Assembly (NCBI GenBank): GCA_900617105.1
Contig: UYFQ01000390.1
Coordinates: 1 to 32,545, forward strand
Origin: Hydrurus foetidus
Taxonomy: Eukaryota
DNA length: 32,545 nucleotides
Direction: 5' to 3'
Position 1 is the stretch's first letter; each line of letters starts with the position of its first letter. The notes below the pieces were generated by a model. That model was not told where the DNA came from, made no database searches, and saw only the letters and a list, made by a program, of their open reading frames with translations. A program made the translations under genes and the position numbers. Shown piece by piece: positions 1,777 to 26,147 of the stretch.

Positions 1777-4700
1777 GTCATTGGGGAATTGGCCCCTACA
1801 GATCTTACTCCTGCGCCTAATCTCCCTCCATACTCCTTCCTAGCTAAACTTCCAGCATCAACTCCATTAGGCTACTGGGACTCAGGCAGCAGCCTCAACG
1901 TCACACCTCACAAATCTCATCTCTACAACATTCAACCTCTCCCCACCCCTTTCTCGTTAGGCGGTGTAAGCGGCTCTTGCCCGGTCACACATTCTGGTTA
2001 TCTTATCTACCTCCCAACCTGCAATAACATGAATCTTGCCTACCTTGCTCCAACCATCCCTGCCACTCTTCTTAGCCTATGCTACATGCAAACTTGCGGA
2101 GCCCATTACTGTCCTGATCCTACTAGCCCTAACACTCACTGTCTTATTTCCTCCTCTGTCAATGGCTTCCTTCTTGACCGGTCCTCCATTACATCCAACA
2201 ACCTACTTCCTATTAATCTCTCATCACTTCGCTCTGCTGCTCTCGCTCATCCAACTCATTACCTCACCCCTCCTGATCCAACGTCATATCTACTCACTTC
2301 AGTTCCCCATACAATTACCCACATCACTGGTGAGCAACGCCGACGTGCAGACCAAGCAGAAGCACTCCATCATGCTTTAGGCCACCCATCAGATGACTCT
2401 CTATTCCTTTGCATTTCAACTGGAAAAATCCCTACGTCACTCGTCCCCTCGGATATCCAACTCAACCGCTCTCTCCGGGGCCACTGCGTCCACTGCGCTG
2501 CTGGCAAGTACAGAGCACCTTCCCGTCCGTCATCAACATCCGCCCCAGCTACTGCTATTGGCCAAACACTATCATTCGATCCTCAGCAACTTCCCAACCC
2601 ATCCCCCGGTGGGTTCACCCACGAGGTCATCATAGTCGATGAGAACTCCGGTTACCTCTCGGTTGTCGGCTCATTCTCCAAATCCACCGCCCATATATTC
2701 AAGGCCATCCACTCAGTAATAACAACTATATATAACGCCTTCGGTCACAAGGTTGAGTCAATGCACAGTGACCCTGAACAAGTCAACAACTCCCTGTCAG
2801 TTCCCCTAGGATCCATCGGCATTAAACTGAAAACCTCCCTTCCCGGCGACCATGCCCATCGAGTAGAGCGCTACATAGAAACCCTACGAGCCATCTCCAG
2901 CGCAATGCTATCGCCCCTCCCATACCATCTTCCCCCCAAGTACTACCTCTACCTCCACCAAGCCGCAGCTGCATCCCGCAACTCCCTCATCTCCACCAAC
3001 AGTTCCATTCCATTCCAGGAAGCACAGCCCTAGTCGTCCAACATATCGACATTCCTTCTCGGCGTCTGCCCGGTCCCCACCTCCCTGTTTCCTCGCCAAC
3101 CGGTCCCCGACGAGCCAGTCCTACCTTCCATGTGTGTTCCATTCCTCCTCCCGTTCCACTCCCATCTCCATCCATCTCACTTCCCATTATGCCTGCCCCC
3201 TCTATCCCCTCGCCCTCAATCACCCACCTCAACTCCCCCATCTACCCCTCCCACAAGCTATTGCCGCTACAACAGCAAACTTGCCAAACCCTTTCCCTAC
3301 TCCACTGCTGGACTCAATCCACACAGCAACCCCCCTGCACCACCCTCCCCCACCTCCTGGCACCCCTCCATCACCACCATCACCCTCATTCCTTTCCATT
3401 CCTTCCACCCATGGATTTACCACTCCCACCAAACCCTCCATCCCCGCCTACGCTTCCACTCGTTCCCTCTGAACTCCCCCATACCCCCTCCCCCCAATTC
3501 AAAACCTGCTTCCCACCAATCCAACGGTCCTCCTTCCGATTTTCAACTCGCGGTTCAAGCTTTCCGCTTATTCAATACTCACGCTTCCTGCCGCTTTTCA
3601 ATGCTCAACAACAACCCCCTCCTCCATCATTCCCACACCCATCCCCGCCCAGAGGACAGAAATGTCCATCGCCCGGGCCTCACGTACCCTCCCCACTTCG
3701 GATATCTCAGCTGCCATATCAAAAGAAACGGACAAACAGTTTACAAAATACGCCAGCCTCCGCCTTGTCCCCCCTCGCACCCCTCTGGAGGCCAGACATG
3801 CCTTCCTGCGCAGTTCAATGTTCATTAAGAGAAAATCAAGCGGCCTCGTCACAGCTCGTCTAGCCATTGACGGTTCTCAACAACCTCCCGACTCATACAC
3901 CGACACCTTTGCAGGCACTTCAGACGTCACTAACCGATCCTTCATCATCGCAGTCGCCCTTGCAGACGCTGCCCATCGTAACATCCTTCCCGAGCTCATT
4001 ATCAGGTCCTACGACATTACTGCCGCATTTCTCCAAAGCTCCCTGCCCCGATCCCACACTGGAGGCTACCAGCTACTCACCACCCTCCCCAAGGATCTAC
4101 CAGACCCTACCCTTGCCGGCAAGACCGCTGAAATTATCGGTGCATGCTATGGTCTCAAGCAAGCCAATTACATCTTCGACACAGAACTAATCGCCCTGCA
4201 CATAGCTGCAGGATTCCTCCCAACACTCTCCGACCACCACACCTTCCGCAAAGTATGTCCGACCAACCCCGCTAACTCCCTCATCATCAACCTTCACGTT
4301 GACGACGGCTTTTATCTGTCAACCTCCCCGTCGCTTCTCGCCGAATATAAAGACCTCCTCACCAACCGATACGGCCCCATCACCTTCGACGACACTTGCA
4401 CCTCGATTTGCGGTATCCACATCACCCGCCACACTGACCACTCCGTCACCCTCGACTACGGCGCCCACATCTCAACCTTCCTTACCAAAGCCGGCATGGA
4501 CCCTCTACCACCAGCCCTTTCCCCGTCCCTCCACCCATTCTTTCAAACCCCCGCTGACCTTACCCCCGTTGATGCAACAGCCTACCAACGCATCAACGGC
4601 TCCCTTCTATTCTACGCCCCCCTCCGCAATTATTGCAGAAAGGAAATCATCCACCTGTGCACACACAATAACGCCCCCACTGCCACACATAGAAGAGACC

Positions 4701-5180
4701 AAATCTAGCTCCTCCGCTACCTCAAAGGTCACCCACATCTCGGCCCCACCTTCACCGCCATCCCGTCTAACCACCCCGACGGTGTAACCCTCTTTGCCTC
4801 TGCTGACGCCTCCCATGCCTGCCATCCCGACGGCTCTAGCCACGCCGCCTACACCCTCAGCGTCGGCCTCAACACAGCTCCCTTCCTTGCCTGCTCGTCG
4901 AAAGAAAAAGGCATTTCGCTCAACCCTTGTGAATCTGAATATAAGACACTCACAAAATGCGCCAAAGACGTCATTTTCTACCGACAATTCGCTACCGACC
5001 TCGGCCATCCGCAAACATCGCCCACTATAATCTATGAAGACAACAAATCCGCTATTAAACTCACTGAAGCTCCAGCCGTCACCCGCAAATCCCGCCACAT
5101 CTTCGTCCAGCATCACTACATCCGGTGGCTCCACCAAGCAAACCACATCACACTCCAGCACCAAGGCACACACGACATTG
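1777..5180 (+). pseudogene. pol: A1 pol (protease, integrase, RT, truncated RNase H)
   Basis: Protease YWDSGSS; integrase HHALGH...CVHC plus FDP/HSDP/VERY; RT YGLKQA and HVDD; RNase H ADASHA/CESEY/YEDN. Stops at 3031-3033 and 4706-4708, with frameshifts or deletions between 3034 and 3660. Confidence 0.92.
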
Positions 5181-5338
5181 TCGTTAGCCAGATCTGCTGA
5201 GCACATAATAATCTAGCTTAACTATTAAGCAAATTCTCGTTCTAAGTCAGATCTTGGACCCTACCCTTCCGGTATCAGTCCAACATTTGCTTAATAGTTA
5301 AGCTAGATTATTATGTGCTCAGCAGATCTGGCTAACGA
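5181..5338. repeat. Perfect 54-bp inverted repeat (5181-5234 / 5285-5338) with a 50-bp spacer; MITE-like or foldback
   Basis: The arms are exact reverse complements. No TSD is visible. Confidence 0.9.
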
Positions 5339-7098: not shown

Positions 7099-7978
7099 TA
7101 GGGCTGGTGGCCGTGGAAAACGAAGAGCCACGGCCAGTCCTACGGCCAGTCGATGAAAATAAAGACGGCCCACGGCCATCTGCTGAAGTTGAGGCTACGG
7201 CCAGTCCTACGGCCCACGGCCACCATGACCAACGGACCGTGGCCGCGGCCGGGCCGTTCCTGCCACGGCCAGATTGACGGCCAACGGCCCGTGGCCGCGG
7301 CCATCAACTCGTCGACAAATATCAATCATAACTTCGTTCAAAGAATGTTGCTCCACCGCTCAGCTTCTTTGAATTCTCTTTCATCTGACTAGCGCTGCGC
7401 AGCGGCAGGAATTTTTTGAGTCGAAAACTGTGGGAAATCGTTCAAGATGTGCTTTTTCGAGGAAAATTTTTAATTATTTAGAGGTTCCTGCAGATCAAAA
7501 CTATGCAATTGGTGAAAAATCATGAACAGACGCCATAAGTTGGGCTTCCGGCAAGTTTGCACTTCGCTAGCCAATCGCAATTCTGCCGCGCAACCTCCGT
7601 TTTCACACTTGAACGATGGATTGACGCTCATGATACTCGAGAAAGTTCTCAGCAGACTACTGCCAAGTATACTGAATGGTTGTTGGCTGAGATGCTGAGC
7701 TTTTGAGAATTGAGAGAGCTGAGACCTCACAAATCACGAAGTCTGTGGTGGTCAAAAAATCTGGCCGTGATGGCCGTGGTGATCATGGCCGTGGCCATCG
7801 GACTGGCCGTGGCGGCCGTAGTGATCACGGCCAGTGCAACCGTGGCCGTGGCCGCTATCACTTCAGACAGGAGCGGCCAGGCCGCTGTGGCCGTGGCCGT
7901 GGCTATTCACGGCCAGTCCGACGGCCACGGCCATGATCACAGTCTGGCCGTGATTTCACGGCCCGGCCACCAGCCCTA
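7099..7978. mobile_element. 880-bp non-autonomous hAT element
   Basis: 15-bp TIR TAGGGCTGGTGGCCG...CGGCCACCAGCCCTA; 8-bp TSD AAAATAAC (7091-7098, 7979-7986); dense subterminal ACGGCC/GGCCGT motifs at both ends. Confidence 0.93.
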
Positions 7979-8341: not shown

Positions 8342-10886
8342 ATGGCGGAAACCACCCCTGATGATGTCATCATCAAAGTTTCCATTAAATTTTTGCTGTC
8401 GAATGGCGTCACCGGATCCTTAATTGGCTCAGGAGGTTAGTTCCATTTCAGATTACGGCCTTCTCGATTAAATCACTCAATTGCACTTTAAACGAGGATG
8501 AAGTATTAGGAAAAAGGCCACGATGACCAAGTACTTCTCTTAACCATGCTACATATATCCGTTGCCTCGATTCTGCCCATGTATATCACAAGCGGATAAT
8601 GCAGTGACTTTTGCCTTCAATTCCTAAGAGTCTGTGAATCAGCTACTGGCTAACATTAATCAACGTCAATTTCAGGATCAGCGATAAAAGAACTAGCAAG
8701 TGTTACTGGAGCTAAAATCCACGTGTCTTCCTCAGACGAGGTTTATCCTGGCACAAACGACAGGTGATCTGGTATTTTTCGGTGCTGAAATGCTACCGCT
8801 CGATGTATCGTCTATGGTCGAAGAAACGAGACATAATAATCGCTGCAAACTGGCTAGAGGATGAATCTGTCAATGTTGGGAAGTGGATTTTGAACCGATA
8901 ATGTTGCAATAAAATGATGCCCTCCTGCGGTCGCTGCTCAGATAACTTTGAAATCCTTCGGACGTTACTTGTCGTTGAATCAAATCGCCTAACTTTGTGC
9001 CTAGACCGTAATCTCGACTAACTTCCTCTTTTTCATGTTTTAATGTCAATCCAATCTTTTCAGAGTTGTGTTAATTGTTGGCAGCGAGAGCGTTGTCTCG
9101 TTGACTCAGACAATCATATGGGAGCTGATAGCGCAACACTTAAGAACTGTCGAAGCGGTTTGTTCTTGTGACGACTCATGACTGTCTCCATCGCACCATT
9201 CTCTTTCCTACTTCATGCGTGACTCTTTATGACTGAATCTTTCCGTGAATATTGACTACTCTCAACCCAAATCGCTGTCAGGGTGAGCGCAGTGAAACGT
9301 GGAGTCCTAAAATCGCTATTGCATCTCCCTCTTTTGGTCGTGAGGTAAACGCAGATAGATTCGTGTTCTGGAAGCCAAGGCGAATTATACGGTTTTGAAT
9401 TCGTATCTTGAGAATTTACCGATCTTCCAAGTAATATTTAGGAAGACTGTGTGAACTATGTGACATGATAAACTTCTGAAGTTGTGAATAACTCAGCTGG
9501 AAATATTTGAATCAATTTCTGCTTACAACAAATGTCATTACCAACACTATTGCACGGTATGTACTAGTCCAGTGATCTAGAAGAGTAGCATACTAACTAC
9601 AACAAACTGTACATGACCATTTCTTTCTCTCAGGATGGTGCACATGTGAGTGCCCGAATATCCATTCCTGCAGCTGTGGGAGGATTAATTCTAGGTAATC
9701 CTGACGCTGTCATGTCTTGTGTTCTTGGAGTGGATCTATGCTGGCTATACTGACTTTCGGATTATGACGCATTACCACACAAATCTCAAAATAAATATTA
9801 AAAAACTGACAATCGTTTTTCTGTTTTCAGGAAGAGGTGGAGCAACAATACGGTTGCTCGCTGAAGAGAGTGGAGCGAAAATCAGCATGACTTCGAAGGA
9901 TGAAGCTGTATTCACGCAGGAGCGCATTTTATCTATTTCTGGCCCAAAATTTTGTTGTATACAGGGCTTAGCTATGGTACTCTCAAAACTTGCAGAAGAC
10001 AGTGAACTCAATCAATTTCTAAACAAAGGCACGAATTACATGACGAACATCAACACGTACGAGTACGCACGAGGCACCGCGTCTAAGAGGGGTGGCCCTG
10101 GCAGAGGTAGAGGAAGAGGGGAGGGGCCTACGGGGCGAGGTGGAAGAAGTATGAGTGGTGGTGGGAGCGATGATGCGCAGGATAGCGGCGCCTTCGATGA
10201 TATTTCCGCCAGCACCACTATATCCATGTCTGTGCCTGAGCTCTTGATAGGCAACCTGTTAGGAAAGAATGTGAGTACAGCTAATTTACTGCTGTTCTTT
10301 TTATTCTTGATTTTCTTCTCTTCTCTCTTCACCCCTACGTTTGTTAAGTGCCTCCACACTTCAAGTGACATATTTAATCCACTGTCATATATTACGGCGG
10401 TAGCGTGCGTGATAAGCAGATGTTCATTTGACAAAACTCACTTCACATAATTCTGACGGTTTATAGGGCACGACCATACGCGAAATCACTTGCCTGTCTG
10501 GTGCCAGAATCACGGTTTCCTCAAGGTAGACCGATTCTCGCAAGGCAAAATAATGACGTCATCTATCGATAAACCCGTTTAATCCAAAACAATGACGTCA
10601 TCTATCCAATTGTATGACCACATCTGATCTTTTTACGAAAACTTTCTTGTGCTGGTTACCCTTGTTTTTTAAGGGGTGAGTACATTGAGGGTACAACAAA
10701 CCGACTAGTGACGATTTCAGGAACACCTGACTGTGCCCAGACTGCGCATCACTTGATAAATCAAAAACTGCTACAAGTACGTACCTAAGTCATTTAATCT
10801 ATTTCGTTTGAAATGCATATTGATCTTCATAACTCTTTCATTCTTCATTGTAGCCTCCCCGATCGACACAATCAGGAATGAAATAA
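8342..10886 (+). CDS. Triple KH-domain RNA-binding protein (NOVA/BTR1-like), 9 exons, ~344 aa
   Basis: Exons 8342-8435, 8676-8763, 9064-9157, 9282-9344, 9634-9694, 9831-10270, 10467-10525, 10674-10776, 10854-10886; all introns GT-AG and frame-preserving. KH loops LIGSGGSAIK, LILGRGGATIR, LLGKNGTTIR; YPGTNDRVV and EGTTNRLVTISG motifs; RGG-rich linker. Confidence 0.9.
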
Positions 10887-11763: not shown

Positions 11764-13400
11764 TCACTGGGCGTGGTGCTTTCCAATAGCTGCTGCGGCT
11801 GCCTTAGCGGAACGTAGGCAGCCTTCGAAGTTGCTCTCAGTGAAAGCATCTCCCGTCACTACAACAATACCGCTGCTAACAATATCTTCAAAACGACCAT
11901 CATCTAGTTTTCTTTTGCCACTTCATGGCGGAATTATAAGTTGATGAAGGTAATACGGTTAAATTAGACGTATATTTCGGTAGTGAAGATGATTACAACA
12001 ATTACTAGCTTAATGAATTCGATCACAACAGACAGACACGTGATCAGGATTGTTGCATCCACTACCTTCTCGATGCGTCACTAGACAGTTCTGGCTGCTG
12101 CAGAATGTTGACTTCTCCTTCAAATCCGAAATTGCTGAGTCCTTTACTAATCTGTGAGTCTCTCCAATTGACGATGTGGTGACTATCTGGTTCTCCTATA
12201 AAACGATATAAAAGAAAGTTTTCATGCACAAAACTCACGTGCTTCGGTTGAATCTTAGTGACTCTGCATAATGTGACAGGTAATGAATAAATTGACAAAA
12301 CGTACCTAGGGAAGGAAAGATCATGTTCAAGCTCTTAAGAATCATCTCGTAGACTACTTTCTCGTCAGTGTCTTTGTGTTGAATACCAAATGGAACGCTG
12401 GTATGCACGAGTATAGATGGTCCTGATCCGCTGTGTCCCTCTGACACTGCGCTGACATCTCCCTCCCTAGTAATCTCAGTCTCAGATTTACTGGCTGGGA
12501 AATTCGATTTCCTATTCTCAATCGACACGTAGCGAATAATTTCGTCATCGAAAATGTATTTACCGCTCCACTTTACATTTTGTAAAGCTGACCAGGAGCT
12601 GAAATGGTAATAAAAGGCCACTGCAAATCTGTGGGTTTGATGACGAGAAAACAATCGTTTAGTTGCATGATGACAACTGCACTCGAAGAAAACCAATCAG
12701 GCAAAAGAATTATTTAAATAATCCAGAGGAAGTCAAATGCACGTGAAATTTACCTCGAAGAGTAGACGACGGAACTAAGCTGTTCTCTAAATTTTGTTCC
12801 GAACATTCCCACGATGTCACCCTCTAATGCTAGCAGCTGAGGAGTAGGAAGACTTAATACAATTGTGTCGAAAGACTCTTCCACTTTCGACCCCAATTTT
12901 GATCCCACTGCTGAGTAAACGTTGCTTTTTAATTCTTCGCAGTACTTCACTGTGATGGATTCCAAAGCTGTATCATAGCAAAATACGCTCGGGGGATCAG
13001 TCACTTGCCCTTTCGAAAGATAATCAACAACAGAGGAGAGCCCATTAGGAGCAATATAATGTGTCTTCAAAGCATGTTCTGGTCTCATTCCACTGATAAC
13101 GCTGTTATCGACCATCGGTGCAATAATGCCTGCATCATTAAGTAACGAGTAAATCAAACTCTCTGCTTCATCGGATGACCTCGTCAAATATTGAGCACCC
13201 ATATCGCAGTGAGATTCAGTGTGCTTCCCGTTCCGATCTGGGGCACTATCTAAATAATTCGTAATCATTCTGCCACCGAGGCTGCTGCTCTTTTCCCAGA
13301 CAGTATAAGATGGTCTCAGTGCAGGAAACATAGATGTGACATATCGATTGACAGCTGCTCCGGTAATTCCACATCCAACGACTAAAATTCTCGGTGACAT
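11764..13400 (-). CDS. RNLS: Renalase-like FAD-dependent oxidoreductase, 4 exons
   Basis: Exons 13400-12754, 12628-12306, 12195-12066, 11875 (or 11872, NAGNAG)-11764. Motifs: VVGCGITG, WEKS..LGGRM, DMGAQY, YSSRFA, HTSVPFG, WRDSQ, GDAFTESNFEGCLRSA. Confidence 0.88.
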
Positions 13401-13574
13401 TGGTCCCTCGAAGACAATTTCGGTTAATGAAATTCTATGAGAAGAAATTATTAAGGGAGTGACCTATGTTGGTTCGTTCAAACTAATCATCCTAAGTGGT
13501 CGAATGTCGGAAGAGAAGAAGTTTCAAGGTTCTGCATTACTTTCTGAAAAAGTGAAGAACGATGATTCAGTGAC

Positions 13575-13614
13575 TGTCAGTGTGTCACTGCTTCAGTTCC
13601 CCCGACCGTCGCCC
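13575..13614 (+). repeat. A2 5' LTR, first 40 bp
   Basis: Matches 25301-25340 and is interrupted by element B. Confidence 0.93.
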
Positions 13615-13979
13615 TGTCGGAATAACTATGAGTTAAGTAACCGTATAAGTTATTGCGTATGTACATTTGATGACGTTTCGTACGTCGTGTGCCGGGTGGA
13701 GGTCGCTACTCCACCGGTCCAGGTTCCTTTAACCCAGGAAGATCAAAAAGATGAAAGTACACCATGTTTGACTGTGCGGGACAGATCGAATTTGTCGACT
13801 GTCTCCATGAACGTTGTAAGCCATGTTGCATCGTTAATTACCTTAAATCTCACACCAGCAGAGCTTCGTCTTTGAGCCGGGACAAGTTGCTAGCGCACGT
13901 GTTGAAGTTGCAGAAGGAGCGCGTACCCAGGAAGGATTTAGTATTCCGTTAATCGGAAGTAGAGCCAGGAAATACGACA
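13615..13979 (+). repeat. B 5' LTR (365 bp)
   Basis: Direct repeat of 19518-19883 with TG...CA termini. Confidence 0.97.
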
Positions 13980-13990
13980 TAATTAACGAT
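13980..13990 (+). promoter_or_regulatory. B primer-binding-site position, complementary to its own LTR (candidate self-priming PBS)
   Basis: TAATTAACGAT is the reverse complement of ATCGTTAATTA at 13830-13840. No TGG start. Confidence 0.8.
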
Positions 13991-14015
13991 ACCTTTCAGT
14001 GCCAAAAGTTGCAAC

Positions 14016-15111
14016 ATGAAAGGCAAAGGCAGAGAAGCAAAACCTGCGGGTAGAGGCGGAAACCCTGCCAACGGGGGCAGAGGTCATGCCACCCAAGGAA
14101 AGGCTCCACCAAGGACAGGAACGGTAGCCGCGATTGGCGCATTCCTGGACCTTGGAAGAGAGATGAACCATGGTAGCGTAAGCACATGGATGAGAAAGTT
14201 CCGTGAGTATACACGGACAAATTACAAATCGGACATTAGCGAAATCTTTGGAAACGAGGGGATACCTGGGGAGTACCCGCAGTATATCGCCCCTGTGGAT
14301 ATAGCTCGCGATTCCGACTTTATGGTCCAAACGAAATGGAAGCGAGCACTCGAGCTCTTCGATAAAAACGTCATCACCTTGAGAGAAGACAGAAAACAAG
14401 TCTTCGGACTTATGCTGGGACAGATCAGCGAAGCTTCAAAAGCTACAATAAGAGAGACAGAAGCCGGATTAAATGCGATGACAGCGGAGGATCCGTTACT
14501 GTTACTGAGAGCTATCATATTGACTCACCTATCGGACCCGAGGCTGGGAGCAGACCAGAACCTGTTAAGAGTACGAATGGCGTACGAGACGGTTAAAATG
14601 GAACCCAACGACGTGTTGAAGTTCTACTATCAACGGTTCAAAGCGTTGAAAGCCGGGTACGAGGATACCATGCGTGCCTTGGGAGTCATGCCCGAATACA
14701 ACGAGGTCATGACCACCCACAACCACTTACTGACTTCAATCAAGTTCATGAATGGACTGAACTCTGGATACCGACATTACGTGGAATATTAGGCTAAAAG
14801 CCTGGCCGATCAACTTAGAGGAAGCTTACCTAGAGATGGCTAAGGTTACCCCGAAGAAACCGGCCGGAACCGCCCCCCCAAATCAAACGAACGTACTCGC
14901 AGTGAAAAACGCCGGCGGAGAGAAAACTGCTGCGACTGATAAGAAAGGGAAGTCTGACGGGGGTGATGGGAAGAAGGGTACCCGTCCGGGGTACGGTACC
15001 CGATCGGGCAAGTGTAATAAATGCAATCAACCGGGACACTACGGTTATGAGTGTACGGCCACGGATAGCCCAGCGGCTGCACCAGCAGCCAGTGGAAAAT
15101 CTTTAAACTAA
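14016..15111 (+). pseudogene. gag: B gag with one frameshift near 14790
   Basis: ORF 14016-14792 ends GYRHYVEY*. The continuation RLKAWPINLEEAYLEM...CNKCNQPGHYGYEC (CX2CX4HX4C) is in the +1 frame, ending at TAA 15109-15111. Confidence 0.85.
15102..15108 (+). other. Candidate -1 ribosomal frameshift heptamer T TTA AAC
   Basis: X XXY YYZ in the gag frame directly before the gag stop. The -1 frame is open from here into pol. Confidence 0.75.
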
Positions 15112-18100
15112 GTAAGTTACATCACTCCTCACCTGTACACTCACCCACACCCGCACCTGTACATACACCTGCACTTACATTTACACACACACCTACACAC
15201 ACACGTACCGATCCTCCATGTTTGGCTGATTCCACTAGCGGAATTGAAACATGTGATCATATTGTTTTTAGTGCCAATACATGCAATGTATATAACATGA
15301 TTAAGAGTAGACACATACTGCTTGACACATGTGCTGGTGAGTCGGTATTCAACGACTCATCCCTGCTATACAATGTCGAACACGCACCTACACCTATGAT
15401 TGTTAGCGGGGTGAATCCGAAAGGAAAACCGCTAATAATCAAGAAACGTGGGGTGTCGGCGTTCGGCAATGTTTATTATAGCCCTGACTGTGCTGGTAAT
15501 ATATTGTCTTTTGGTAACGCTGTACGTGACTGTACTGATGTTAAGTACTTACATGACTATGATTGTTACATAGTGCAAGATGTCATTGGCCAATATTTTT
15601 ATAGATTCTCGCGAGATGAGTCTACGAATATATACCAATGTGATCTTGACACTATGGTAACTGAGTGCATGCCAATATTAGTTACGACAGTAGAAGAGAA
15701 GAAGAAGAAGTATACAGTAAGAGAGGTCAGAGACGCGTCGTTAGCTAGAGACTATCAGCGTAGACTAGGATACGCTAGCGCAGCACAAACTATTAAGTTG
15801 ATATCCCAAGGGAATTTGACTAATTGTAAAGTGACTGCGCGAGACGTACATAGAGCAATCGATATATGGGGACCGGACGTGGGATCCCTAAAGGGGAAGA
15901 CCACTAGTCACCAGGCTAAGATAGAAGAGAAGTTGCCATTGATAGGAATAGAGTATAAGACCGAACAGATAATGTATATAGACTTAATGTTCGTGAACAG
16001 AGTACCTTACCTAGTCACAGTAGTGCAGCCTATTGAGTTCCTGTATGTAAGCAAGTTAGCTAATAAAGACCATAAGACAATTTGGAATAGCTTGAAGACT
16101 GCATTAGCCAGCATGGTAAAACACAAGTTCAGAGTTAAGATGATTCGAGTAGACGGTGAGGGTGCAATAAACACCGAATGGTTTCACAACAAAGTCGGTT
16201 TAAGAGGTATAGTATTAGACGTTACCGGAGCCGGGGAAGCCGTAGCCGTAGTAGAACGTAAGATCAGACATATCAAAGAGAGAGTCAGATCAGTCATAAA
16301 TTCGTTACCATTTCAGTTAGATGATAAGCTCGAAGTGTGGTTAGTTAAGTATGCAGTCAGTAGAATTGTATTAGCTCCCACACGTAACTCCACCAATCAT
16401 ATCAGCCCTAGAGAGAAATTGACAGGTAGAAAGATAGATATTGATAAGGAGATTAAACATGGATTTGGTGATTATGTACAAGTGCACAATGATGTAATTG
16501 ATAATTCCACCAAACCAAGAACTGCCGGGGCCATAGCACTTATGAGCTCCGGTAATCTAGAAGGTTCATGGTTTTATATGCTGTTAGCAAATGGGCAGAT
16601 AGTTAAGAGAACTAAAGCCACTATATTACCCATGCCTGATGAAGTCATACTGCATTTGAATAAACTTGCATCGACTAGAAAGACTGCCAATGTTAAACAA
16701 CCTGTATTCGAGAGTAGTCACACTGTATTCAATGATGATGATGATTTTGATGATGATGCTGAATATATTGGTGATATCGAATATGATATCATTGACGAAT
16801 CTGCTGTTGCAGAAGAAGTTGATGATAACATTGAAGATAACTTTGTTGACGATACTCCATATGTTGAACCACAACTTGACACATATGATGAAGATCACCC
16901 ACCCACATTAGATGAATATGTAGATGACACACTATATGTGACAGACACTACTGATGATGCTATTCAATATGATGCACATGAGTATACACCTAAGTATGAT
17001 CAAGCTTTAATAGATGATATATTTGGTGTTAGTGATGATGAAGATGATTTTAATGATGTATCTGTACACTCTGAAGTATTCACACCACCTGTTACAATAG
17101 AAACTGAACATGACTCACCTGACACTGATTCACCCGTGTTGCGTAGAAGTGGTAGAAATCACCAACTTGGCAAATGGAATAAGAAGTTTGTTGGTAGTAT
17201 GTTGTATAATCACACCCACCTATACAAAATGACTGTTAATGAAGGAATTACTAAGTTAGGGGTGGTAGCTGTTGATTCCATCACATCTGAACTAAAACAA
17301 ATGTGTGATAAGAATGTATGGGAAGGTGTAACTTATGAATCCCTTACCCCTAAACAAAAACGCACCATTATACCTAGTAGCATGTTTTTAAAAGAAAAGT
17401 ACACTGCTGATGGTATGTTTGAAAAACTGAAATCTAGACTAGTTGCCGGTGGGCACTTACAAGATAGAGATGTTTATAATAATGGCGCATCACCTACTGC
17501 TAGCACATCCAGTGTATTCATACTAACTGCAATTGCTGCTAGACAGAACCGTGCCGTTGCTACTGTTGATTTCCCCGGTGCATTTCTGAATAGTGATATG
17601 CCGCTGACCGGTGACCATGTTGTATACATGCGTTTAAATAAACAACTAACTGCTGCACTAATTAAAATTGATGCAACATATAACAATTATATTAATGACA
17701 ATGGAACATGTATTGTTAAACTTAAGAAAGCATTATATGGATGTGTAGAATCTGCTAAATTATGGTATGACAAACTATCCAGTGATTTGATTAAATTCAA
17801 TTATACTGCTAATGAATATGACATATGTGTGTTCAACCGAATTGAATCCGATAATACACAAACATCACTCGTAATTCATGTTGATGACATGATCATAACT
17901 GCTTCAACTGAATCTCGTGTTGATGATGTTATAAGACAAATTGAAACTATATATCCCGGTCTAACAAAACACAGAGGAAAAGTTTTAAATTACATAGGTA
18001 TGACATTTGACTTCAGCAAGGAAGGAAGTGTCAAGATGACCATGGAAGGCTTCGTGCATGATCTTATTGAGGGGTGCAAAGACATGCCCGGGACGGCAAC

Positions 18101-18956
18101 TACACCCGCACGACCTAACCTATTCACTGTACCTAACGAATCCGACTCACTCTTACCTGATAATCTGCGTGAGCGTTTTCATTCTATTACAGCCAAGCTG
18201 CTCTACCTGAGCAAGAGGACTAGGCCAGACATTCTGACGGCCGTAGCGTTCCTCACCAAGCGAGTGCTTAATCCCCAGAGGGATGACTATGACAAGCTGA
18301 CCCGTACGATACAGTACATACGGGGTAGTCAGCACATGGGTATAACATTTGAACTATATGAACCTATTCATGTTATTGCATATATCGATGCATCCTTTGC
18401 CATACACCCCGATATGAAAAGTCACACAGGCAGCGTAATCACCCTGGGAAAGGGAGCGATCTACGCCAAGAGCGGTACTCAGCGCCTGATGACAAAGTCC
18501 AGCACGGAGGCGGAGTTAGTCGCACTTAGCGACGCTGCCAACCAAGTGCTGTGGACTAGGAACTTCCTGGAACGCCAGGGACATCCCCAACCTCCCGCAT
18601 TAGTGTACCAAGACAATCAGTCTACGATACAGCTGATACGGAACGGACGTTCGAACAGCGAACGTACGCGGCACGTTGATATACGGTATTTTTTCTTGCA
18701 CGACAGGATTACCACTGGCGATGTGGACATCGTATACCTACCTACCACCGACATGATAGCAGACATACTCACTAAGCCACTCCAAGGGGAGTTATTCAAG
18801 AAGCTCAGGAAGGAGCTACTCAACATTATCCCATCTACCCTCACGTACGCAGAAGGCTGCAAGACCGAGGACCGTACGGGCCCAGCACTGGCACCCGTAC
18901 GCACGAGAACCAACCCACGGTTCCCGTATCCTACACCCCACACTCAAAGAAAATAA
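15102..18956 (+). CDS. pol: B pol polyprotein (PR-IN-RT-RH), uninterrupted
   Basis: Protease LLDTCA; integrase YIDL/RVDGE/VERKIR; RT KSRLVAGG, VDFPGAFL, LYG, HVDD; RNase H YIDASF, TEAEL, QDNQS, ADILTK. Acidic linker between IN and RT. Confidence 0.95.
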   Translation, partial: FKLSKLHHSSPVHSPTPAPVHTPALTFTHTPTHTRTDPPCLADSTSGIETCDHIVFSANTCNVYNMIKSRHILLDTCAGESVFNDSSLLYNVEHAPTPMIVSGVNPKGKPLIIKKRGVSAFGNVYYSPDCAGNILSFGNAVRDCTDVKYLHDYDCYIVQDVIGQYFYRFSRDESTNIYQCDLDTMVTECMPILVTTVEEKKKKYTVREVRDASLARDYQRRLGYASAAQTIKLISQGNLTNCKVTARDVHRAIDIWGPDVGSLKGKTTSHQAKIEEKLPLIGIEYKTEQIMYIDLMFVNRVPYLVTVVQPIEFLYVSKLANKDHKTIWNSLKTALASMVKHKFRVKMIRVDGEGAINTEWFHNKVGLRGIVLDVTGAGEAVAVVERKIRHIKERVRSVINSLPFQLDDKLEVWLVKYAVSRIVLAPTRNSTNHISPREKLTGRKIDIDKEIKHGFGDYVQVHNDVIDNSTKPRTAGAIALMSSGNLEGSWFYMLLANGQIVKRTKATILPMPDEVILHLNKLASTRKTANVKQPVFESSHTVFNDDDDFDDDAEYIGDIEYDIIDESAVAEEVDDNIEDNFVDDTPYVEPQLDTYDEDHPPTLDEYVDDTLYVTDTTDDAIQYDAHEYTPKYDQALIDDIFGVSDDEDDFNDVSVHSEVFTPPVTIETEHDSPDTDSPVLRRSGRNHQLGKWNKKFVGSMLYNHTHLYKMTVNEGITKLGVVAVDSITSELKQMCDKNVWEGVTYESLTPKQKRTIIPSSMFLKEKYTADGMFEKLKSRLVAGGHLQDRDVYNNGASPTASTSSVFILTAIAARQNRAVATVDFPGAFLNSDMPLTGDHVVYMRLNKQLTAALIKIDATYNNYINDNGTCIVKLKKALYGCVESAKLWYDKLSSDLIKFNYTANEYDICVFNRIESDNTQTSLVIHVDDMIITASTESRVDDVIRQIETIYPGLTKHRGKVLNYIGMTFDFSKEGSVKMTMEGFVHDLIEGCKDMPGTATTPARPNLFTVPNESDSLLPDNLRERFHSITAKLLYLSKRTRPDILTAVAFLTKRVLNPQRDDYDKLTRTIQYIRGSQHMGITFELYEPIHVIAYIDASFAIHPDMKSHTGSVITLGKGAIYAKSGTQRLMTKSSTEAELVALSDAANQVLWTRNFLERQGHPQPPALVYQDNQSTIQLIRNGRSNSERTRHVDIRYFFLHDRITTGDVDIVYLPTTDMIADILTKPLQGELFKKLRKELLNIIPSTLTYAEGCKTEDRTGPALAPVRTRTNPRFPYPTPHTQRK

Positions 18957-18963
18957 ATGTTTG

Positions 18964-19111
18964 CTGACGAAGACTCAAAGACTCCGTCATTTCTGCTGCC
19001 CATCCCATCCGACTCTACTACCCCATCAGTGCGCATTCTGACGAAGACCCCAAGACTCCATCATTCCTGCTACCCCCTCCATCATTTTCTACTACCCCGT
19101 CAAGTGCGAAT
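18964..19111 (+). repeat. ~74-bp tandem duplication in the B 3' UTR
   Basis: CTGACGAAGAC...AAGACTCC.TCATT.CTGCT.CCC...CTACTACCCC.TCA.GTGCG occurs at 18964 and 19038. Confidence 0.75.
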
Positions 19112-19517
19112 CGAGACCAAGACCGAACACTGAAGACTCCAAGAAAATCCCGACAGAGACATAAAGAGCGAGGAACGTGGACCCAGACCCAAGACCCGAT
19201 TCCGGGATGAGATAGTACCATCAGTCAGAAAATTACTTTTAAGTGCATTCTTTTGCGTGTTACATAAAGTCTTTTTAGTATTGTTTAACTCTATGCTCAT
19301 TCGGATCAGTCAGACCTTATGATACTAATATTACCCTGTGTGTAATAAATTATCTAACGTCACAATTAAAGTCAACCTCACTATTACCCTACTTCCCTAC
19401 ACTACGAAATCATGTCATGATACACCATTTGTGAAACTCCAAGTAAACGGAGTATTTTTGAATTCTATTGCGTTTTCATTCGCGTACACCAACCCGACGA
19501 CTCACGCCATAGGGGTG

Positions 19518-19883
19518 TGTCGGAATAACTAATGAGTTAAGTAACCGTATAAGTTATTGCGTATGTACATTTGATGACGTTTCGTACGTCGTGTGCCGTG
19601 TGGAGGTCGCTACTCCACCGGTCCAGGTTCCTTTAACCCAGGAAGATCAAAAAGATGAAAGTACACCATGTTTGACTGTGCGGGACAGATCGAATTTGTC
19701 GACTGTCTCCATGAACGTTGTAAGCCATGTTGCATCGTTAATTACCTTAAATCTCACACCAGCAGAGCTTCGTCTTTGAGCCGGGACAAGTTGCTAGCGC
19801 ACGTGTTGAAGTTGCAGAAGGAGCGCGTACCCAGGAAGGATTTAGTATTCCGTTAATCGGAAGTAGAGCCAGGAAATACGACA
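19518..19883 (+). repeat. B 3' LTR (366 bp), preceded by a short PPT-like ATAGGGGTG
   Basis: Direct repeat of 13615-13979. Confidence 0.97.
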
Positions 19884-19888
19884 CGCCC

Positions 19889-20115
19889 CCCCCCCCCTCT
19901 TTTCACAACCGCATACATCGACATTTTCATGCACATTCCGTTCGCTCATTTCACTACACGTTAGATGTCTTCCTGTAATTCAATCTCAATGTATCTCAAC
20001 TTCTCTCGATCTATTCACTCAATACCATTCTGCTCACACAATATAAAGCAGTAATCTTTTAAACAATTCTGTTTCTACCGCATCGTCTTACCGACTTCCG
20101 GCCGATTCACTGACA
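19889..20115 (+). repeat. A2 5' LTR, remainder
   Basis: Matches ~25341-25568 and ends CACTGACA. Confidence 0.95.
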
Positions 20116-20129
20116 ATTGTTTAAAAGAT
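20116..20129 (+). promoter_or_regulatory. A2 primer-binding-site position, complementary to its own LTR (candidate self-priming PBS)
   Basis: ATTGTTTAAAAGAT is the reverse complement of ATCTTTTAAACAAT at 20054-20067. The gag ATG follows immediately. Confidence 0.85.
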
Positions 20130-21353
20130 ATGCTTCCTGCTACAGTCCATCCTAGCGCCCCAGCCGCAACAATTCTCGACATTGTCTCAGATAATTGGGC
20201 ACAGTTTAACAAGGCTTTCACCTTGTCTTGCTACACAAAATTTGGAGTCGCGGGTCAGCAAATTCTTTCAAACAAAGAAATCCCACTTACTCCATTCGCT
20301 GTCGCCCCAACCAAATTGGATTTGGATACTAATCTCGCTGGGAGACCAATACCCGGTCAATACACGTATGCTAGACGCACCACAACAGCAGCTGAAGCTG
20401 CACTCCCGGAATTCGACCTCGCAACAATCTCTTTAACTGAATCAGCTAATCGTGAATATCGCGAGGATCTAAAACTCTACACCGCAGCTGCCCGTATCTT
20501 TGCCCTAGAGGACACTGAGTGCCTCGATCATTTACATCGACACATTTCATTACCTTCTCACACGTCAATCAAAACCCATCCGCTCTACACAGCGTACCAA
20601 CTTCTCCCTATAGGCAAACGCAGCTATGCCTTTTATAAAATGGCAAGGGACATACACTCCATCGGCAACGCAACAACCAAATTACACCGTACTCGTCTGT
20701 ACGTCAATATGTCGCAGATCGATCTCACTCACGAACAATATATGGAACAAATCTGCTCTATGGCTGAAACCTTCAACATTGACTTCGAATCTCCAACCTA
20801 CCCCGGCTACGTTCGCCTAAACGAATTTCACAGCTTCATCTATCTCGCAGGCCTAGATCGCACACAATTTCGAAGAGTCATCGATGAAACTCTCCAGACC
20901 AATCCAACTGGTCGCTTTCCAGACCATATCGCCCTCATGGCCCAAATACAAACTTGGAAAGTAGCCAACGCCTTATCTTTTACAAGGGAGGCTATCTCTA
21001 CTCAGGGGTCAGCTCTTATCGCTAAACCATCCCCTTCAACAAAATCAAACAAAAAGGAGCCTACTCAACGTCCACACCTACATCCTTCACCCTGCACATG
21101 GTGCCTATCCGCTGACAAAGTCTCACGGTATGGCCACTTATCATCTCACTGTTCTAAAAACCCCAACCGACTCCCTGGCCCTAGTCCTGCTCCTGTCCCA
21201 CCAACTCCTCGCCCTCCCTCAAACACATCTACTCGTCTCCATGCACTACTAAGCCAGCTCGACACTGCCACCACGCCAAACGATACTAATGCTGCCATGC
21301 TTCTAATTGCTGAAGCAGCTATTGAAGCGTCCGACTATCCCGACAGCGCCTGA
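20130..21353 (+). CDS. gag: A2 gag, 407 aa
   Basis: Located right after the LTR/PBS; similar to A1 gag; C-X2-C-X10-H-X4-C knuckle. Confidence 0.88.
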   Translation: MLPATVHPSAPAATILDIVSDNWAQFNKAFTLSCYTKFGVAGQQILSNKEIPLTPFAVAPTKLDLDTNLAGRPIPGQYTYARRTTTAAEAALPEFDLATISLTESANREYREDLKLYTAAARIFALEDTECLDHLHRHISLPSHTSIKTHPLYTAYQLLPIGKRSYAFYKMARDIHSIGNATTKLHRTRLYVNMSQIDLTHEQYMEQICSMAETFNIDFESPTYPGYVRLNEFHSFIYLAGLDRTQFRRVIDETLQTNPTGRFPDHIALMAQIQTWKVANALSFTREAISTQGSALIAKPSPSTKSNKKEPTQRPHLHPSPCTWCLSADKVSRYGHLSSHCSKNPNRLPGPSPAPVPPTPRPPSNTSTRLHALLSQLDTATTPNDTNAAMLLIAEAAIEASDYPDSA

Positions 21354-24300
21354 CTACCTGTAGTCAACAGCCACACTCTATCCAACATCACACTCGCTTC
21401 ACCTGACCCTCTTGCTCTAACCGCCGACTATGCTCCTACAAATTGCCCATACTCCACCCTTGCTATCCCTTACCCAAGTTCTTTAGCCCTTTCTTCACAA
21501 AGGACTGTCATTATTCCTTCCATCCTCGCACCAACTTACTGGGATAACGCATGCTCATTCCACACAGTCAACGACCTGACCCTGCTATACAATACTTCAA
21601 CCCTACATGCTCCATTCTCTCTGGGTGGCGTCGGTGGAACCTGTCTAGTCACTCATCGTGGTTACCTTCACTGCCTACCCCACAACAACAATATGAACGT
21701 TGCCTACTACGCTCCAACTATACCAGTCAACTTGTTCAGTCTAGGACACCTTCAGCGATGTGGAGCTAGCTACGGCCCAGACCCACTTCGACCCCTCACA
21801 CATGTCTCCGTCTATTCATCAATCTCTGGCCCCCTACTAGCCCATGCTACACTCTCACCAAATAACCTCCTTCTCGTCGACTTCAATGCTCTTAAAATGG
21901 CATCAATCCTGTCCCCCCTACGATACCATCCCTCCTACGCACTAAATGCTACATTCCCAATCCAACATATCAACGCTGAACAGCACGCTCGGGCTGATGC
22001 TGCTGAGCAGCTGCACATCGACCTTTGCCATCCATCGGACAGGAGTCTCTGCTCGAATCTCTCTACTGGCAAACTACCATTCACTACACTAACATGTACT
22101 GACATCACCCTCAACCGTCAACTCCGCGGCCCTTGCCCCCATTGCGCCGCTGGTAAGCACACCAACCCACCACACCCTCCATCAACAAGCCCTCCCGCTA
22201 CATCCATTGGTGAGGTCATCTCAATCGACCCACAGCTCCTTCCAGAACCTTCACCGGGACAACACACACACGAAATAATCCTCGTGGATGAGTTCACCGG
22301 CCACCTCTCTGTCGTTGGTGCCACATCAAAATCAACCCCGGCTGTATTCAAAGCACTACAACACATCATATCCACCACCTTCAACGCAAACCAACACCGC
22401 GTCGGTACAATCCACGGCGATTGCGAAAAGATCAATATCTCTCTCGCTGGCCCCCTTGGCTCGCTCGGCATCAATCTCCATACATCCCCTCCTGGAGAAC
22501 ATGCCGCGCGAGTCGAACGCTATATTCTTATCCTCCGCCAACTGTCCATCGCAATACTCTCAGCACTATCCTACATCCTCCCCTCCAAATATACCCTGTA
22601 TCTCCACAAAGCCATCGCATCGGTCCGAAACTCACTCATCAATTCTCGCAGCTCCCCCTCTACACCCGACGAACTCCTACGAGGTACCAAACCATCCCGT
22701 CGCCAATTCCCCTTCGGAGCCTGTTGCATGGTAACCCAGCACTACGACAAACGTGTTGCCCTTGCCCGTGCACATCAGTCCTCACCTGCCGTCGAAGCTA
22801 AGGCCGAAATCGGTGTCTGTATGGGCCATGATCATATCACTGGCCGAACCCTCTTTCTCCTCGCTAATGGTGCTATCGTACCTCGACGTCCCACATCGCA
22901 ACTACCATCCTCCTATGTCCCATTTAATTGGACCCCTAAAACCTTCGTGATCACCACACCCATTCCCTCTCCAACACAAGACCTCGCATCACCTCTACCC
23001 GCACCTCCCCTCAACTGTGTCGTCCAATTGCCACACGTCCCCCACTCCGACGCTATCGCCACAGTAACCGGTCATATCCCCTCCCCCCTCAACAGCGATC
23101 TTCTCTCCTACATCCGCCAACCACCCTCATTGATCCCTACCTCAACGACAACCCATCCCGGAGAATACACACTTCAAACCTTGATAACTCCATCTACCCC
23201 ACCTCAATCACCTACCACCATTGCCACGGCTATACCCAACGCGGCACCTACAGACCCATCCACTCCTCCAGCCGTGATCGACAACATCACTCATAGCTCA
23301 ATGCTATCCCCACTACCTACACCACCCACCACGCCTACACACATCTCTACACCGGCGCCGCGTCCTTCACGCAATACAGCACACCCACCCAACTTCTGGA
23401 AAGGTGCTTGCGTCAGCTCAGCCCCAAATACCGTACCCCCCAATAATGAACGCATGTCAGCCATCAAAAGAAAACTCTTCCTTTCTCAACAAGCAGCAAT
23501 CCGCAATAGGAACCACCGCCTCCAAAACCCAACACCATACAATAACCGAACCACCAACATTCTGCCTGAGCCTCTCCCCACACGCCGCGCAGAGATGTCG
23601 ATTCGTAAGGCCTCGAACCTATACAACGCCGCCGACATTTCCGCGGGCATCTCCAAGGAACTTTGCAAACACTTCACAACTTACAAATCACTAACACTCC
23701 TACCAAGACACGCCATCGAACCAAATGCAGTATTCATGCGAAGTCAAATCTTCATTTAAAAAAAATCCAATGGTCTCATTACAGCCAGGCTCGCTATTGA
23801 CGGCAGTACACAACCCCGCAAAACCTACAATGACACTTACGCAGGCACTTCTGATACAACAAACCGCGCATTTCTCCTTCAAGCATACATAGCAGATGCC
23901 ACACATCGTGGGTGCCTCGACCAATTACGCATAGGAGATTTTGACTTTCCCGGTGCCTTCCTTCATAATAAATTAACACGCGAAATGACCAATGGTCATC
24001 AGCTCATAGCCAAACTCCCATCGGATCTCCCCAGCCCACTCGCCGGACAACTTGCCGAAATTACCGGGTGCTGCTACGGGATCAAGCAGGCTAATCACGA
24101 GTATGATAAGGATCTAATCAACCTTCTTACCAACGCTGGCTTCATACCTACTGCCTCTGACCCACACTCTTTCCACAAACGCTGCTCTAACAACCCTTCA
24201 GATTCCTTGACCCTAAACATGCATGTTGATGATGGGTGGTACGTTACGTGCTCCGTCCCGCTCCTTGCCGAACTTAAGGCCGTTCTCACAATGCGCTACG

Positions 24301-25199
24301 GCCCCATCGACTTTCACGATGCCTCTAACGGCGTCTGCGGCGTCCGACTTACACGCCACCACGACCACTCTTGCACCCTAGATCAAGGTCCTCATATCAC
24401 CAAATTCCTCCACCGCGCGGGAATGGACCTGGTCCCACCAGCTCTCACACCATCCACGGCCACATTCTTCGACCCCCCCACCGACCTAACACCAGTTGAT
24501 AAAACCCGATTTCTCAGCGTGAATGGCAACCTTGTATTCCTCCTGCCCATACGCCATGATATACGCAAGGAAGTCATCCATCTATGCTCACGCAACTCCA
24601 ACCCTGTGCAGTCCGATCTTACCAAGCAGATACACGTCCTTCGCTATCTCAAAAGCTGTCCTGATCTTGGCCCCACATTCTCCACTAATCCCTCCGCTTA
24701 TCCCAACGGAGTCACAATCACAGCTGCTGCTGATTCCTCCCACGCATGCCATGCCGACGGCCGCAGCCACTCAGCTTATATCATCCGCATTGGACTCAAC
24801 ACCGCACCTTTCGTTACGCACTCAGCATCTGAAACCTCTGCTATTGCACTAAGCCCCTGTGAAGCAGAGTATCTCGCCCTCGGTCGGTGTGCTCAGCATG
24901 TCCTATACTTCAGACAATTCGCGGCCGACATTGGCTTCCCCCAAACCGCACCCACTGTTATCTTTGAAGATAACCAACCCGCTATCAATCTAACAGTCGC
25001 CCCTGGAATCACCCGCAAATCCAGGCACATCGCACTCAAAGAACACTATATTCGCTGGCTCTTCCAATCTAAACAAATCGCACCACAATTTGTGGGAACA
25101 AACGACATGCTCGCTGACGGCCTCACTAAAAGTCTCGCTCCATCAAAGTTCCTCTGGTTTCGCAAGGAACTATTCAATTCACATAATTTACAGAAATAG
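21354..25199 (+). pseudogene. pol: A2 pol, in frame with gag after a TGA; single nonsense TAA at 23757-23759
   Basis: Protease YWDNACS; integrase HIDLCH...CPHC plus IDP/HGD/VERY; RT TARLAIDG, DFPGAFL, YGIKQA, HVDD; RNase H DSSHA, CEAEY, EDNQ, ADGLTK. The TAA replaces the Lys seen in A1 (FIKRKS). Confidence 0.93.
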
Positions 25200-25300
25200 C
25201 CTGCTTCTTTCTATTTTCTATTCAAATACTTTAATCTTTTTTTTTCCTACATCTACACATATCCTCTCCATAATTCGCATATATATAGCTTACCGGCGCA

Positions 25301-25568
25301 TGTCAGTGTATCACTGCTTCAGTTCCCCCGACCGTCGCCTCCCCCCCCCCTCTTTTCACAACCGCATACATCGACATTTTCATGCACATTCCGTTCGCTC
25401 ATTTCACTACACGTTAGATGTCTTCCTGTAATTCAATCTCAATGTATCTCAACTTCTCTCGATCTATTCACTCGATACCATTCTGCTCACACAATATAAA
25501 GCAGTAATCTTTTAAACAATTCTGTTTCTACCGCATCGTCTTACCGACTTCCGGCCGATTCACTGACA
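25301..25568 (+). repeat. A2 3' LTR (268 bp)
   Basis: About 4 differences from the reconstructed 5' LTR; 8-bp terminal inverted repeat. Confidence 0.96.
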
Positions 25569-26147
25569 GTGACTGTTCCTGCTACGGCTACGTACGTGTG
25601 GTGCTACGTACGTGTAGTACTGTACGTGTGTAAATTACCCGTGTGTGTATTACAGCCATAGAATAAAATGGCACCCATTTACGGACATACTAAATCAATA
25701 GGAGATATATTTTGAAATTGAAAAAAATACTTTATCGTGTGTAGAAATAATGTAACGTGTAAATTTCTACCATAAGGATTATATGGTCAAATATGTGTAA
25801 TTTCTATTATTTAAATAGAAACTTGACTATAAATGACTCCATCAGACTTTATAAATAGATTTTTGTACTAATATCTGGACATCCGTTTCACATCTACCAA
25901 ATTAAAGGAATACCTACCCACAGTGTACACTGTTCAGTAAATAACGAGAATCGTACTAAAATCGAGTCCATGCACTTTAAACTGCAATCGATGACTTCAT
26001 TAGCGAAACCGATACCTTAAATCTGTAATTGAAACTGCTAATCATTGAGCGTCTACTACAACATTATACGTATCGACAGTCAATTCTTGCATGTCTCTCC
26101 GTTCATCGAGTCGCATTTAGTGCTTGTCTGTATTCTACAATCGAGCA

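Follow-up and report, generated by a model that had tools for sequence, protein, structure and literature searches.

Self-primed reverse transcription has so far been proven only in the gypsy-type element Tf1 and predicted in one plant copia lineage. For Tf1, self-priming was shown by experiment, with RNase H cleaving between bases 11 and 12 (PMC7175516), and two duplexes flanking the central one are also needed (PMC10085805). The plant lineage is TAR, of the Ty1/copia type (Houba, Osr-1), in which 89% of 203 elements were predicted to self-prime, as here from complementarity to their own LTR, of 10 bp or more at a distance of 0-5 nt from it (PMC6317226). Fungal GalEa elements carry a Conserved Hairpin Site in place of a tRNA site, for which the authors found no LTR complement (PMC5445492). 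It has also been proposed that the precursor of LTR elements was self-priming and that tRNA priming came late (PMC3601003). For diatom-type copia elements the accessible parts of three papers contain nothing on priming (PMC2806351, PMC2774666, PMC5371799), and in searches of the open literature we found no description of self-priming in protist copia elements.

Here we analyze a copia element, B, contained in a stretch of 32,545 nucleotides from Hydrurus foetidus (contig UYFQ01000390.1), hereafter the window. Judging from its sequence and from those of its relatives, B likely uses the 5'-terminal 11 nt of its own RNA as the primer for reverse transcription, in the manner of Tf1.

Element B is a recently inserted copia element

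The main features of B are the following:

13615-19883 (+): element B, a copia LTR retrotransposon
13615..13979 (+): 5' LTR of B, 365 nt, TGTCG...CGACA, 99.5% identical to the 3' LTR
14016..15111 (+): gag of B, broken in this copy by a frameshift near 14790
15069..18956 (+): pol of B, an open frame of 1295 aa with protease, integrase, RT and RNase H (copia order)
15102..15108 (+): in-phase U UUA AAC heptamer directly 5' of the gag stop, with pol in the -1 frame
19511..19517 (+): end of the polypurine tract, AGGGGTG, immediately 5' of the 3' LTR
19518..19883 (+): 3' LTR of B, forming the LTR pair with 13615-13979

The LTR pair, with its TG...CA ends and 99.5% identity, and the 5-bp target duplication CGCCC on either side (13610-13614 and 19884-19888) are those of a Ty1/copia element. 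Because the LTRs are so nearly identical and the duplication is in place, B is a young insertion and its LTR end is fixed independently of any pairing. The RVT_2 domain of pol was matched in Pfam with an E value of 2.2e-21, while the domain order was taken from motifs in the translation; the integrase, for which Pfam returned no match, was identified by eye. The acidic motifs of RNase H can be read in the pol translation, and its activity is predicted only. The pol motifs of B may resemble those of CoDiII.

In gag, a stop lies at 14790-14792 and the zinc knuckle sits in another frame; near 14790, contigs from related copies of B read differently. The heptamer at 15102..15108 is a predicted site for -1 frameshifting from gag into pol. 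Among 23 testable relatives, pol is in the -1 frame in five, all within the subclade of B and three of them with an in-phase slippery heptamer, and gag and pol share a single frame in 18, so a programmed -1 frameshift was likely gained in that subclade. A GGGGTG-like motif lies 5' of the LTR start in most relatives of B, their polypurine tract having shrunk to a G-run plus GTG (GGGGTG/TG, with the slash at the LTR start); A-type elements, introduced below, have GCGCA/TG at this place.

The sequence behind the 5' LTR of B pairs with the LTR

The elements of the putative priming structure are these:

13829..13830 (+): C/A dinucleotide, predicted transcription start (A13830 = +1), from the C/A enrichment in the lineage
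13830..13840 (+): LTR arm of 11 nt, the predicted self-primer, complementary to 13980-13990 at every position
13980..13990 (+): primer-binding site of B, flush with the LTR end and without TGG

In agreement with the original prediction, TAATTAACGAT at 13980-13990 agrees letter for letter with the reverse complement of 13830-13840, and it lies flush with the independently fixed LTR end. Dinucleotide shuffles of the B LTR gave a flush match of at least 11 nt in 5 of 20,000 cases, or in 18 of 20,000 when offsets of 0-3 were allowed. TGG, with which a site for a tRNA 3' end starts, is absent behind the 5' LTRs of both B and A. In predicted transcripts starting from 13815 to 13830 the helix between 13830-13840 and 13980-13990 has a pair probability of 0.79-1.0 (0.85-1.0 for the start at 13830 itself), and it disappears when the start is moved to 13835 or later. 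In one contig from a related copy, the primer site contains an extra nucleotide. An Rfam scan of 13500-25700, with E up to 1, gave no match and hence no hammerhead.

The same geometry recurs with different letters in the lineage of B

We aligned 40 pol proteins (that of B and 39 of the 120 listed) and derived from them RT patterns for a scan of metagenome contigs that was blind to LTR sequence. A relative is encoded in 371 stretches, the best 80 of which gave 78 loci; 15 of these were dropped for having too little sequence behind RNase H, leaving 63. LTR ends were called from the polypurine tract and the terminal inverted repeat alone, blind to pairing, and a call was obtained in 50 loci and none in 13. 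An earlier, stricter blind caller had given too many ambiguous calls and was replaced.

A flush match of at least 9 nt to the element's own LTR was present in 36 of the 51 elements, that is, in B and in 35 of its 50 metagenomic relatives, where it measured 9-18 nt. Shuffles predicted 0.25, and the claim that the match rate would exceed that of shuffled controls was thereby confirmed. Counted by LTR cluster, the match was found in 29 of 41. At other nearby CA dinucleotides it occurred in 20 of 303 cases, several of which are the true end or lie 2 nt inside the site. Arm and site are on one unbroken contig stretch in 32 of the 35 positive relatives, with no read-around of contig ends.

Fifteen of the 51 blind calls had no match of at least 9 nt. 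Six of these were rescued post hoc by a match of 11-14 nt located at a different CA, and five show by eye, likewise post hoc, a perfect match of 9-16 nt at a mis-called or mutated end; such rescued cases weigh less than the blind calls. In another, L014, 10 of 11 positions are paired and the LTR pair confirms the blind end. The remaining three, L026, L032 and L063, have no clear self-match and together form one clade. Behind the called LTR end of L063 stands GGGTGGCAGAAC, which contains TGG and agrees with the GalEa tRNA-Met site at 9 of 12 positions; it is possibly a switch of primer, or chance. Among the viral contigs searched, neither B nor A had a relative.

Putative primer and primer site covary

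For the comparison between elements we kept one element per cluster, giving 32 lineages, four of them by a rescued boundary. These 32 clusters have 32 different primer sites; the matches measure 9-18 nt (median 13), and the loops span 48-249 nt. The equality between the 11 nt of B and the length of the Tf1 self-primer, to which attention had been drawn originally, is thus a coincidence, and 11 nt was discarded as a conserved primer length. When each site was confronted with the LTRs of the other elements, a pairing of at least 9 nt was found in 8 of 992 combinations. In 13 hand-picked related pairs, 41 of 162 positions differ while both members still pair, a count that comes partly from offsets and distant pairs. 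Differences at paired positions with the pairing kept amount to 2 of 12 between L012 and L013, 2 of 10 between L017 and L019, and 3 of 16 between L036 and L037.

The LTR arms are AT-rich, which speaks for a fortuitous pairing of AT-rich stretches, but this explanation is refuted by the shuffles (5/20,000 for B and 0/20,000 for A), by the blind survey of the lineage (36/51 vs 0.25 expected) and by the cross-element test (8/992), and we assign it practically no probability. At the level of sequence, the covariation shows that the pairing is selected, though not for which purpose.

A tRNA primer is unlikely because the 32 primer-site sequences all differ, and only one of the 51 elements has a TGG no more than 5 nt from its LTR end. 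A further candidate primer is half a tRNA or a fragment from inside a tRNA, the type used by Drosophila copia, Osser and Bianca, with the LTR match being secondary. Priming by half-tRNAs is known in copia, the primer sites have a weak common start (A in 26 of 32 at position 2 and likewise at position 3), and L063 has the GalEa-like stretch with TGG described above. However, a fixed tRNA cannot account for sites that, past their first few bases, are different in all 32 lineages and in each case follow the LTR of the same element, and we hold such a primer to be very improbable.

In the predicted folds of 27 of the 32 lineages the pair probability of the central duplex is 0.85 or more; in the other five the duplex is weak. 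Pairing of the U5 end is 0.56 compared with 0.51 in shuffles (p 0.08), and the U5 end of B is mostly unpaired. Behind the primer site, pairing is 0.48 compared with 0.38 (p 0.004), in B as a local hairpin. The base after the arm is a T, able to pair with the last A of the LTR, in 16 of 28 lineages (background 34%, p 0.01); unlike these, B has no T there. Across the lineage the gag ATG lies 12-71 nt behind the LTR end.

These features invite the question of whether the duplex is instead a selected leader structure, serving packaging, dimerisation or the control of gag translation, while some other primer is used. The excess of pairing behind the primer site over shuffles would agree with this, the covariation proves a selected pairing and not its purpose, and fungal GalEa has a conserved hairpin for which no LTR complement was found (PMC5445492). 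On the other side, the arms are placed at the first post-LTR base and at the C/A, a geometry that only priming needs, and no alternative primer site came to light (TGG in 1 of 51), so that we consider a mere leader structure improbable and favor priming by the LTR arm.

The LTR arm begins at a putative initiator

The arm starts exactly at a C/A in 22 of the 32 lineages, whereas the background is 5.5% and chance matches do so in 17 of 491 cases. Among blind calls alone the count is 19 of 28, and within one base of a C/A it rises to 29 of 32. Such an enrichment is as expected if the LTR arm is the 5' end of the transcript, and we infer from the sequences that it is. The C/A is the core of the initiator, whose human form is BBCA+1BW (PMC5287114); initiators have been described in LTRs (PMC3601003) and TATA-less initiator promoters in a stramenopile (PMC3599244). 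The human consensus BBCABW is fully matched in 12 of 30 lineages, compared with 101 of 582 background CAs; the start context of B, TGCATC, misses its last letter. A TATA was found in 1 of 32 lineages and AATAAA just upstream of the arm in none of the 32, and because of the latter the CA of the arm is unlike a poly(A) cut site. Both a TATA box at the arm and an AATAAA-linked poly(A) site were therefore discarded.

Raw RNA reads with the same species label, covering ~6% of each of two runs, yielded 71 and 61 reads. Most are 90-99% alike, and the bulk of them run in sense orientation out of host sequence into the start of the LTR. The 71 and 61 reads, which exclude the 3' LTR of B and the junction of A, comprise no sense read across the primer site and form no start or poly(A) pile. 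Several host transcripts read in sense into B-family LTR copies at different loci (13560-13957), and the read-through reads have loose ends before 13613-13615. The DNA runs of the host contain many related copies of the B family.

An LTR-derived primer might also be supplied in trans, by the other packaged RNA, by the 3' R copy or by solo-LTR transcripts, with no cut in cis. The arm is present in both LTRs, related copies are many in the host DNA, LTR copies are read through by host transcripts, and a three-duplex structure of the Tf1 type is not evident, all of which would accommodate such a primer. Nevertheless, the loop to be spanned in cis measures only 48-249 nt, 27 of 32 folds give the cis duplex a probability of 0.85 or higher, and Tf1 provides a precedent in cis (PMC7175516); we regard a trans-acting primer as quite unlikely and retain priming in cis.

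The second duplex is confined to B

Two further features bear on the bipartite duplex of the original prediction:

13822..13830 (+): upstream arm of the second duplex, pairs with 14010-14018
13992..14023 (+): predicted local hairpin behind the primer site, covering the gag ATG, in the minimum-energy structure

The match of 13822-13830 with 14010-14018 is indeed present in B; A13830 is common to both matches, and the two together make 19 pairs. As a feature of the lineage it did not stand: a second-duplex match of at least 7 nt occurred in none of the 31 other lineages examined, with 0.4 expected in all. Within B the shuffle p value is 0.001, although B was chosen for this match. Competition from a local hairpin at about 13992-14023 keeps the ensemble probability of the second duplex at 0.02-0.2, and forcing that duplex costs 4.4 kcal/mol. 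That hairpin is the minimum-energy fold for starts at 13822, 13825 and 13830, and predicted starts at 13780-13820 give a similar one shifted by a few nt. Moreover, the arm lies upstream of the likely start, and with a start at 13830 it would be outside the RNA. Position 13823 is also a C/A, and an RNA starting there would contain the second duplex, which in that case may be a B-specific extension. We conclude that the second duplex is likely incidental or B-specific, and the bipartite 19-bp duplex, found in B alone (1/32) and losing to the local hairpin, was rejected as a lineage feature.

Element A repeats the geometry in a distant relative

Two other copia elements are present in the window:

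13575-25568 (+): element A, copia, with the target duplication GTGAC at 13570-13574 and 25569-25573
13575..13614 (+): first part of the 5' LTR of A, up to the insertion point of B, matching 25301-25339
19889-20115 (+): remainder of the 5' LTR of A
20054..20067 (+): predicted self-primer of A, 14 nt, 0/20,000 shuffles
20116..20129 (+): primer-binding site of A, flush with the LTR end, pairs with 20054-20067
25301..25568 (+): 3' LTR of A
about 685-5200: element C, copia

B interrupts the 5' LTR of A at a point 40 nt from the LTR start, upstream of the predicted self-primer of A, and both target duplications (GTGAC of A and CGCCC of B) are intact. As had been noticed before, the LTRs of A and B are dissimilar (best blastn match, E 1.7) and the geometry is the same in different sequence, A having a flush match of 14 nt that was reached in none of 20,000 shuffles. 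The two elements share 26% identity over RT/RNase H. The relatives of A in genome contigs were two loci, L079 and L080; the former, which is long, lacks the middle of its LTR, and the latter (1364 nt) lies entirely within pol. Both come from assemblies labelled as bacterial metagenome-assembled genomes and are likely eukaryotic contamination. The idea that tRNA-independent priming is lineage-wide is supported in the lineage of B (35 of 50 blind calls, 32 different sites, arm start at C/A), while in that of A it rests on a single element.

Gag and pol of A are in frame and separated by TGA then CTA (21351-21356), presumably a read-through-type context; a further in-frame stop lies in pol at 23757-23759. 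In C they are also in frame, separated by TAG (1774-1776). The own 5' LTR of C is not recognisable, and the best inverted match at its 5' end is 7 nt. The window opens (1-605) with an (ATTTTG)n tandem array of ~530 nt, followed by an LTR fragment and then by C; the fragment, 74 nt at 532-605, is 88% identical to the LTR of B. The RNase H end of C is cut off by an inverted repeat (5181-5338) with perfect arms of 54 nt and a spacer of 50 nt, and behind this repeat come a G-run and GT-rich sequence that may be a minus-strand LTR. The rest of the window contains a 33-nt inverted repeat at 7779-7940, a KH-domain frame at 9695-10450 (+), a renalase-like oxidoreductase frame at 12750-13463 (-) that ends about 110 nt from the insertion site of A, and a hAT dimerisation-domain frame at 30217-31269 (-).

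Proposed mechanism and its implications

Self-priming of B in cis would proceed as follows. Transcription would start at A13830, from a C/A initiator with no TATA box, and the capped 5' end of the RNA would fold onto 13980-13990. Cleavage after nt 11, by a nuclease that in analogy to Tf1 would be the RNase H of B itself, would leave a 3'-OH, from which RT would copy 13979 back to 13841 before jumping to the 3' repeat. The product would be a strong-stop DNA of 139 nt, and the length of ~139 nt given in the original prediction is arithmetically correct for 13841-13979. The scheme also requires that 13840 lie upstream of the poly(A) site. Primer length would be set per family, within 9-18 nt, with primer and primer site changing together.

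In a quick tree of 67 rows, unrooted and shown with a midpoint root, B falls among its 50 relatives and A groups with C and L079. The B and A groups are joined, apart from nine main-branch copia proteins (SH-aLRT 99), in a tree with long branches and with compositional bias in the A-type rows. The nine include proteins labelled Vitis, Trametes and Closterium; CoDi, GalEa, Ty1 and TAR references were left out.

What is new here is most likely the occurrence of a known mechanism in a different, deep copia lineage, with a variable primer length and an initiator anchor. If B does self-prime, the diversity of its lineage and the very distant A would mean that self-priming arose repeatedly or is old in copia, and both lineages bear on the proposal of a self-priming precursor (PMC3601003). 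A broader reading, which we put forward tentatively and consider rather doubtful, is that initiator-anchored self-priming is ancestral in a deep microbial-eukaryote copia branch including A and B, with family-specific primers of 9-18 nt and without the three-duplex structure, and that the GalEa-type tRNA or hairpin sites are later replacements or remnants. The 32 natural primer/site pairs, of 9-18 nt and anchored at an initiator, offer a direct way to test the cleavage rule. Elements of this kind would be missed or mis-scored wherever LTR annotation demands a tRNA site.

Comparison with known systems

Among the described systems, Tf1 and Tf2 of Schizosaccharomyces pombe (Tf1/sushi) resemble B in having no tRNA site and in the pairing of the post-LTR bases with the LTR. 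In Tf1 and B alike, the paired LTR stretch is at the predicted RNA 5' end and the match is 11 nt. Tf1 is nonetheless a Ty3/gypsy chromovirus, whereas B is a copia element (RVT_2, integrase before RT); Tf1/sushi elements are recognized by a last-placed integrase and a chromodomain, and B has the RT and domain order of copia and no chromodomain match. The primer would be 9-18 nt in the lineage of B, where the flanking 'pretzel' duplexes are not evident in the predicted folds. The cut has been demonstrated in Tf1, and in B it would occur by analogy.

TAR elements are, like B, copia elements with an LTR-complementary primer site. The two appear to be distant from each other, judging from a tree without TAR sequences, and the subclade of B has pol in the -1 frame.

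Fungal GalEa shares with B the copia type and the lack of a tRNA site, and its CHSeq1 (CTAATTAGT) resembles the TAATT/CAATT start of many primer sites in the lineage of B. The RT motifs are DFPGAF and HVDD in B but DVKAAY and YVDD in the GalEa rows examined. The marks of GalEa are the animal site TGGTAGCAGAGC, a CHS without LTR complement and the RT motif DVKAAY, and B has none of them.

Finally, CoDiI and CoDiII of diatoms are, like B, deep-branching copia elements of microbial eukaryotes, with TG...CA ends and a length of 5-8 kb (PMC2806351).
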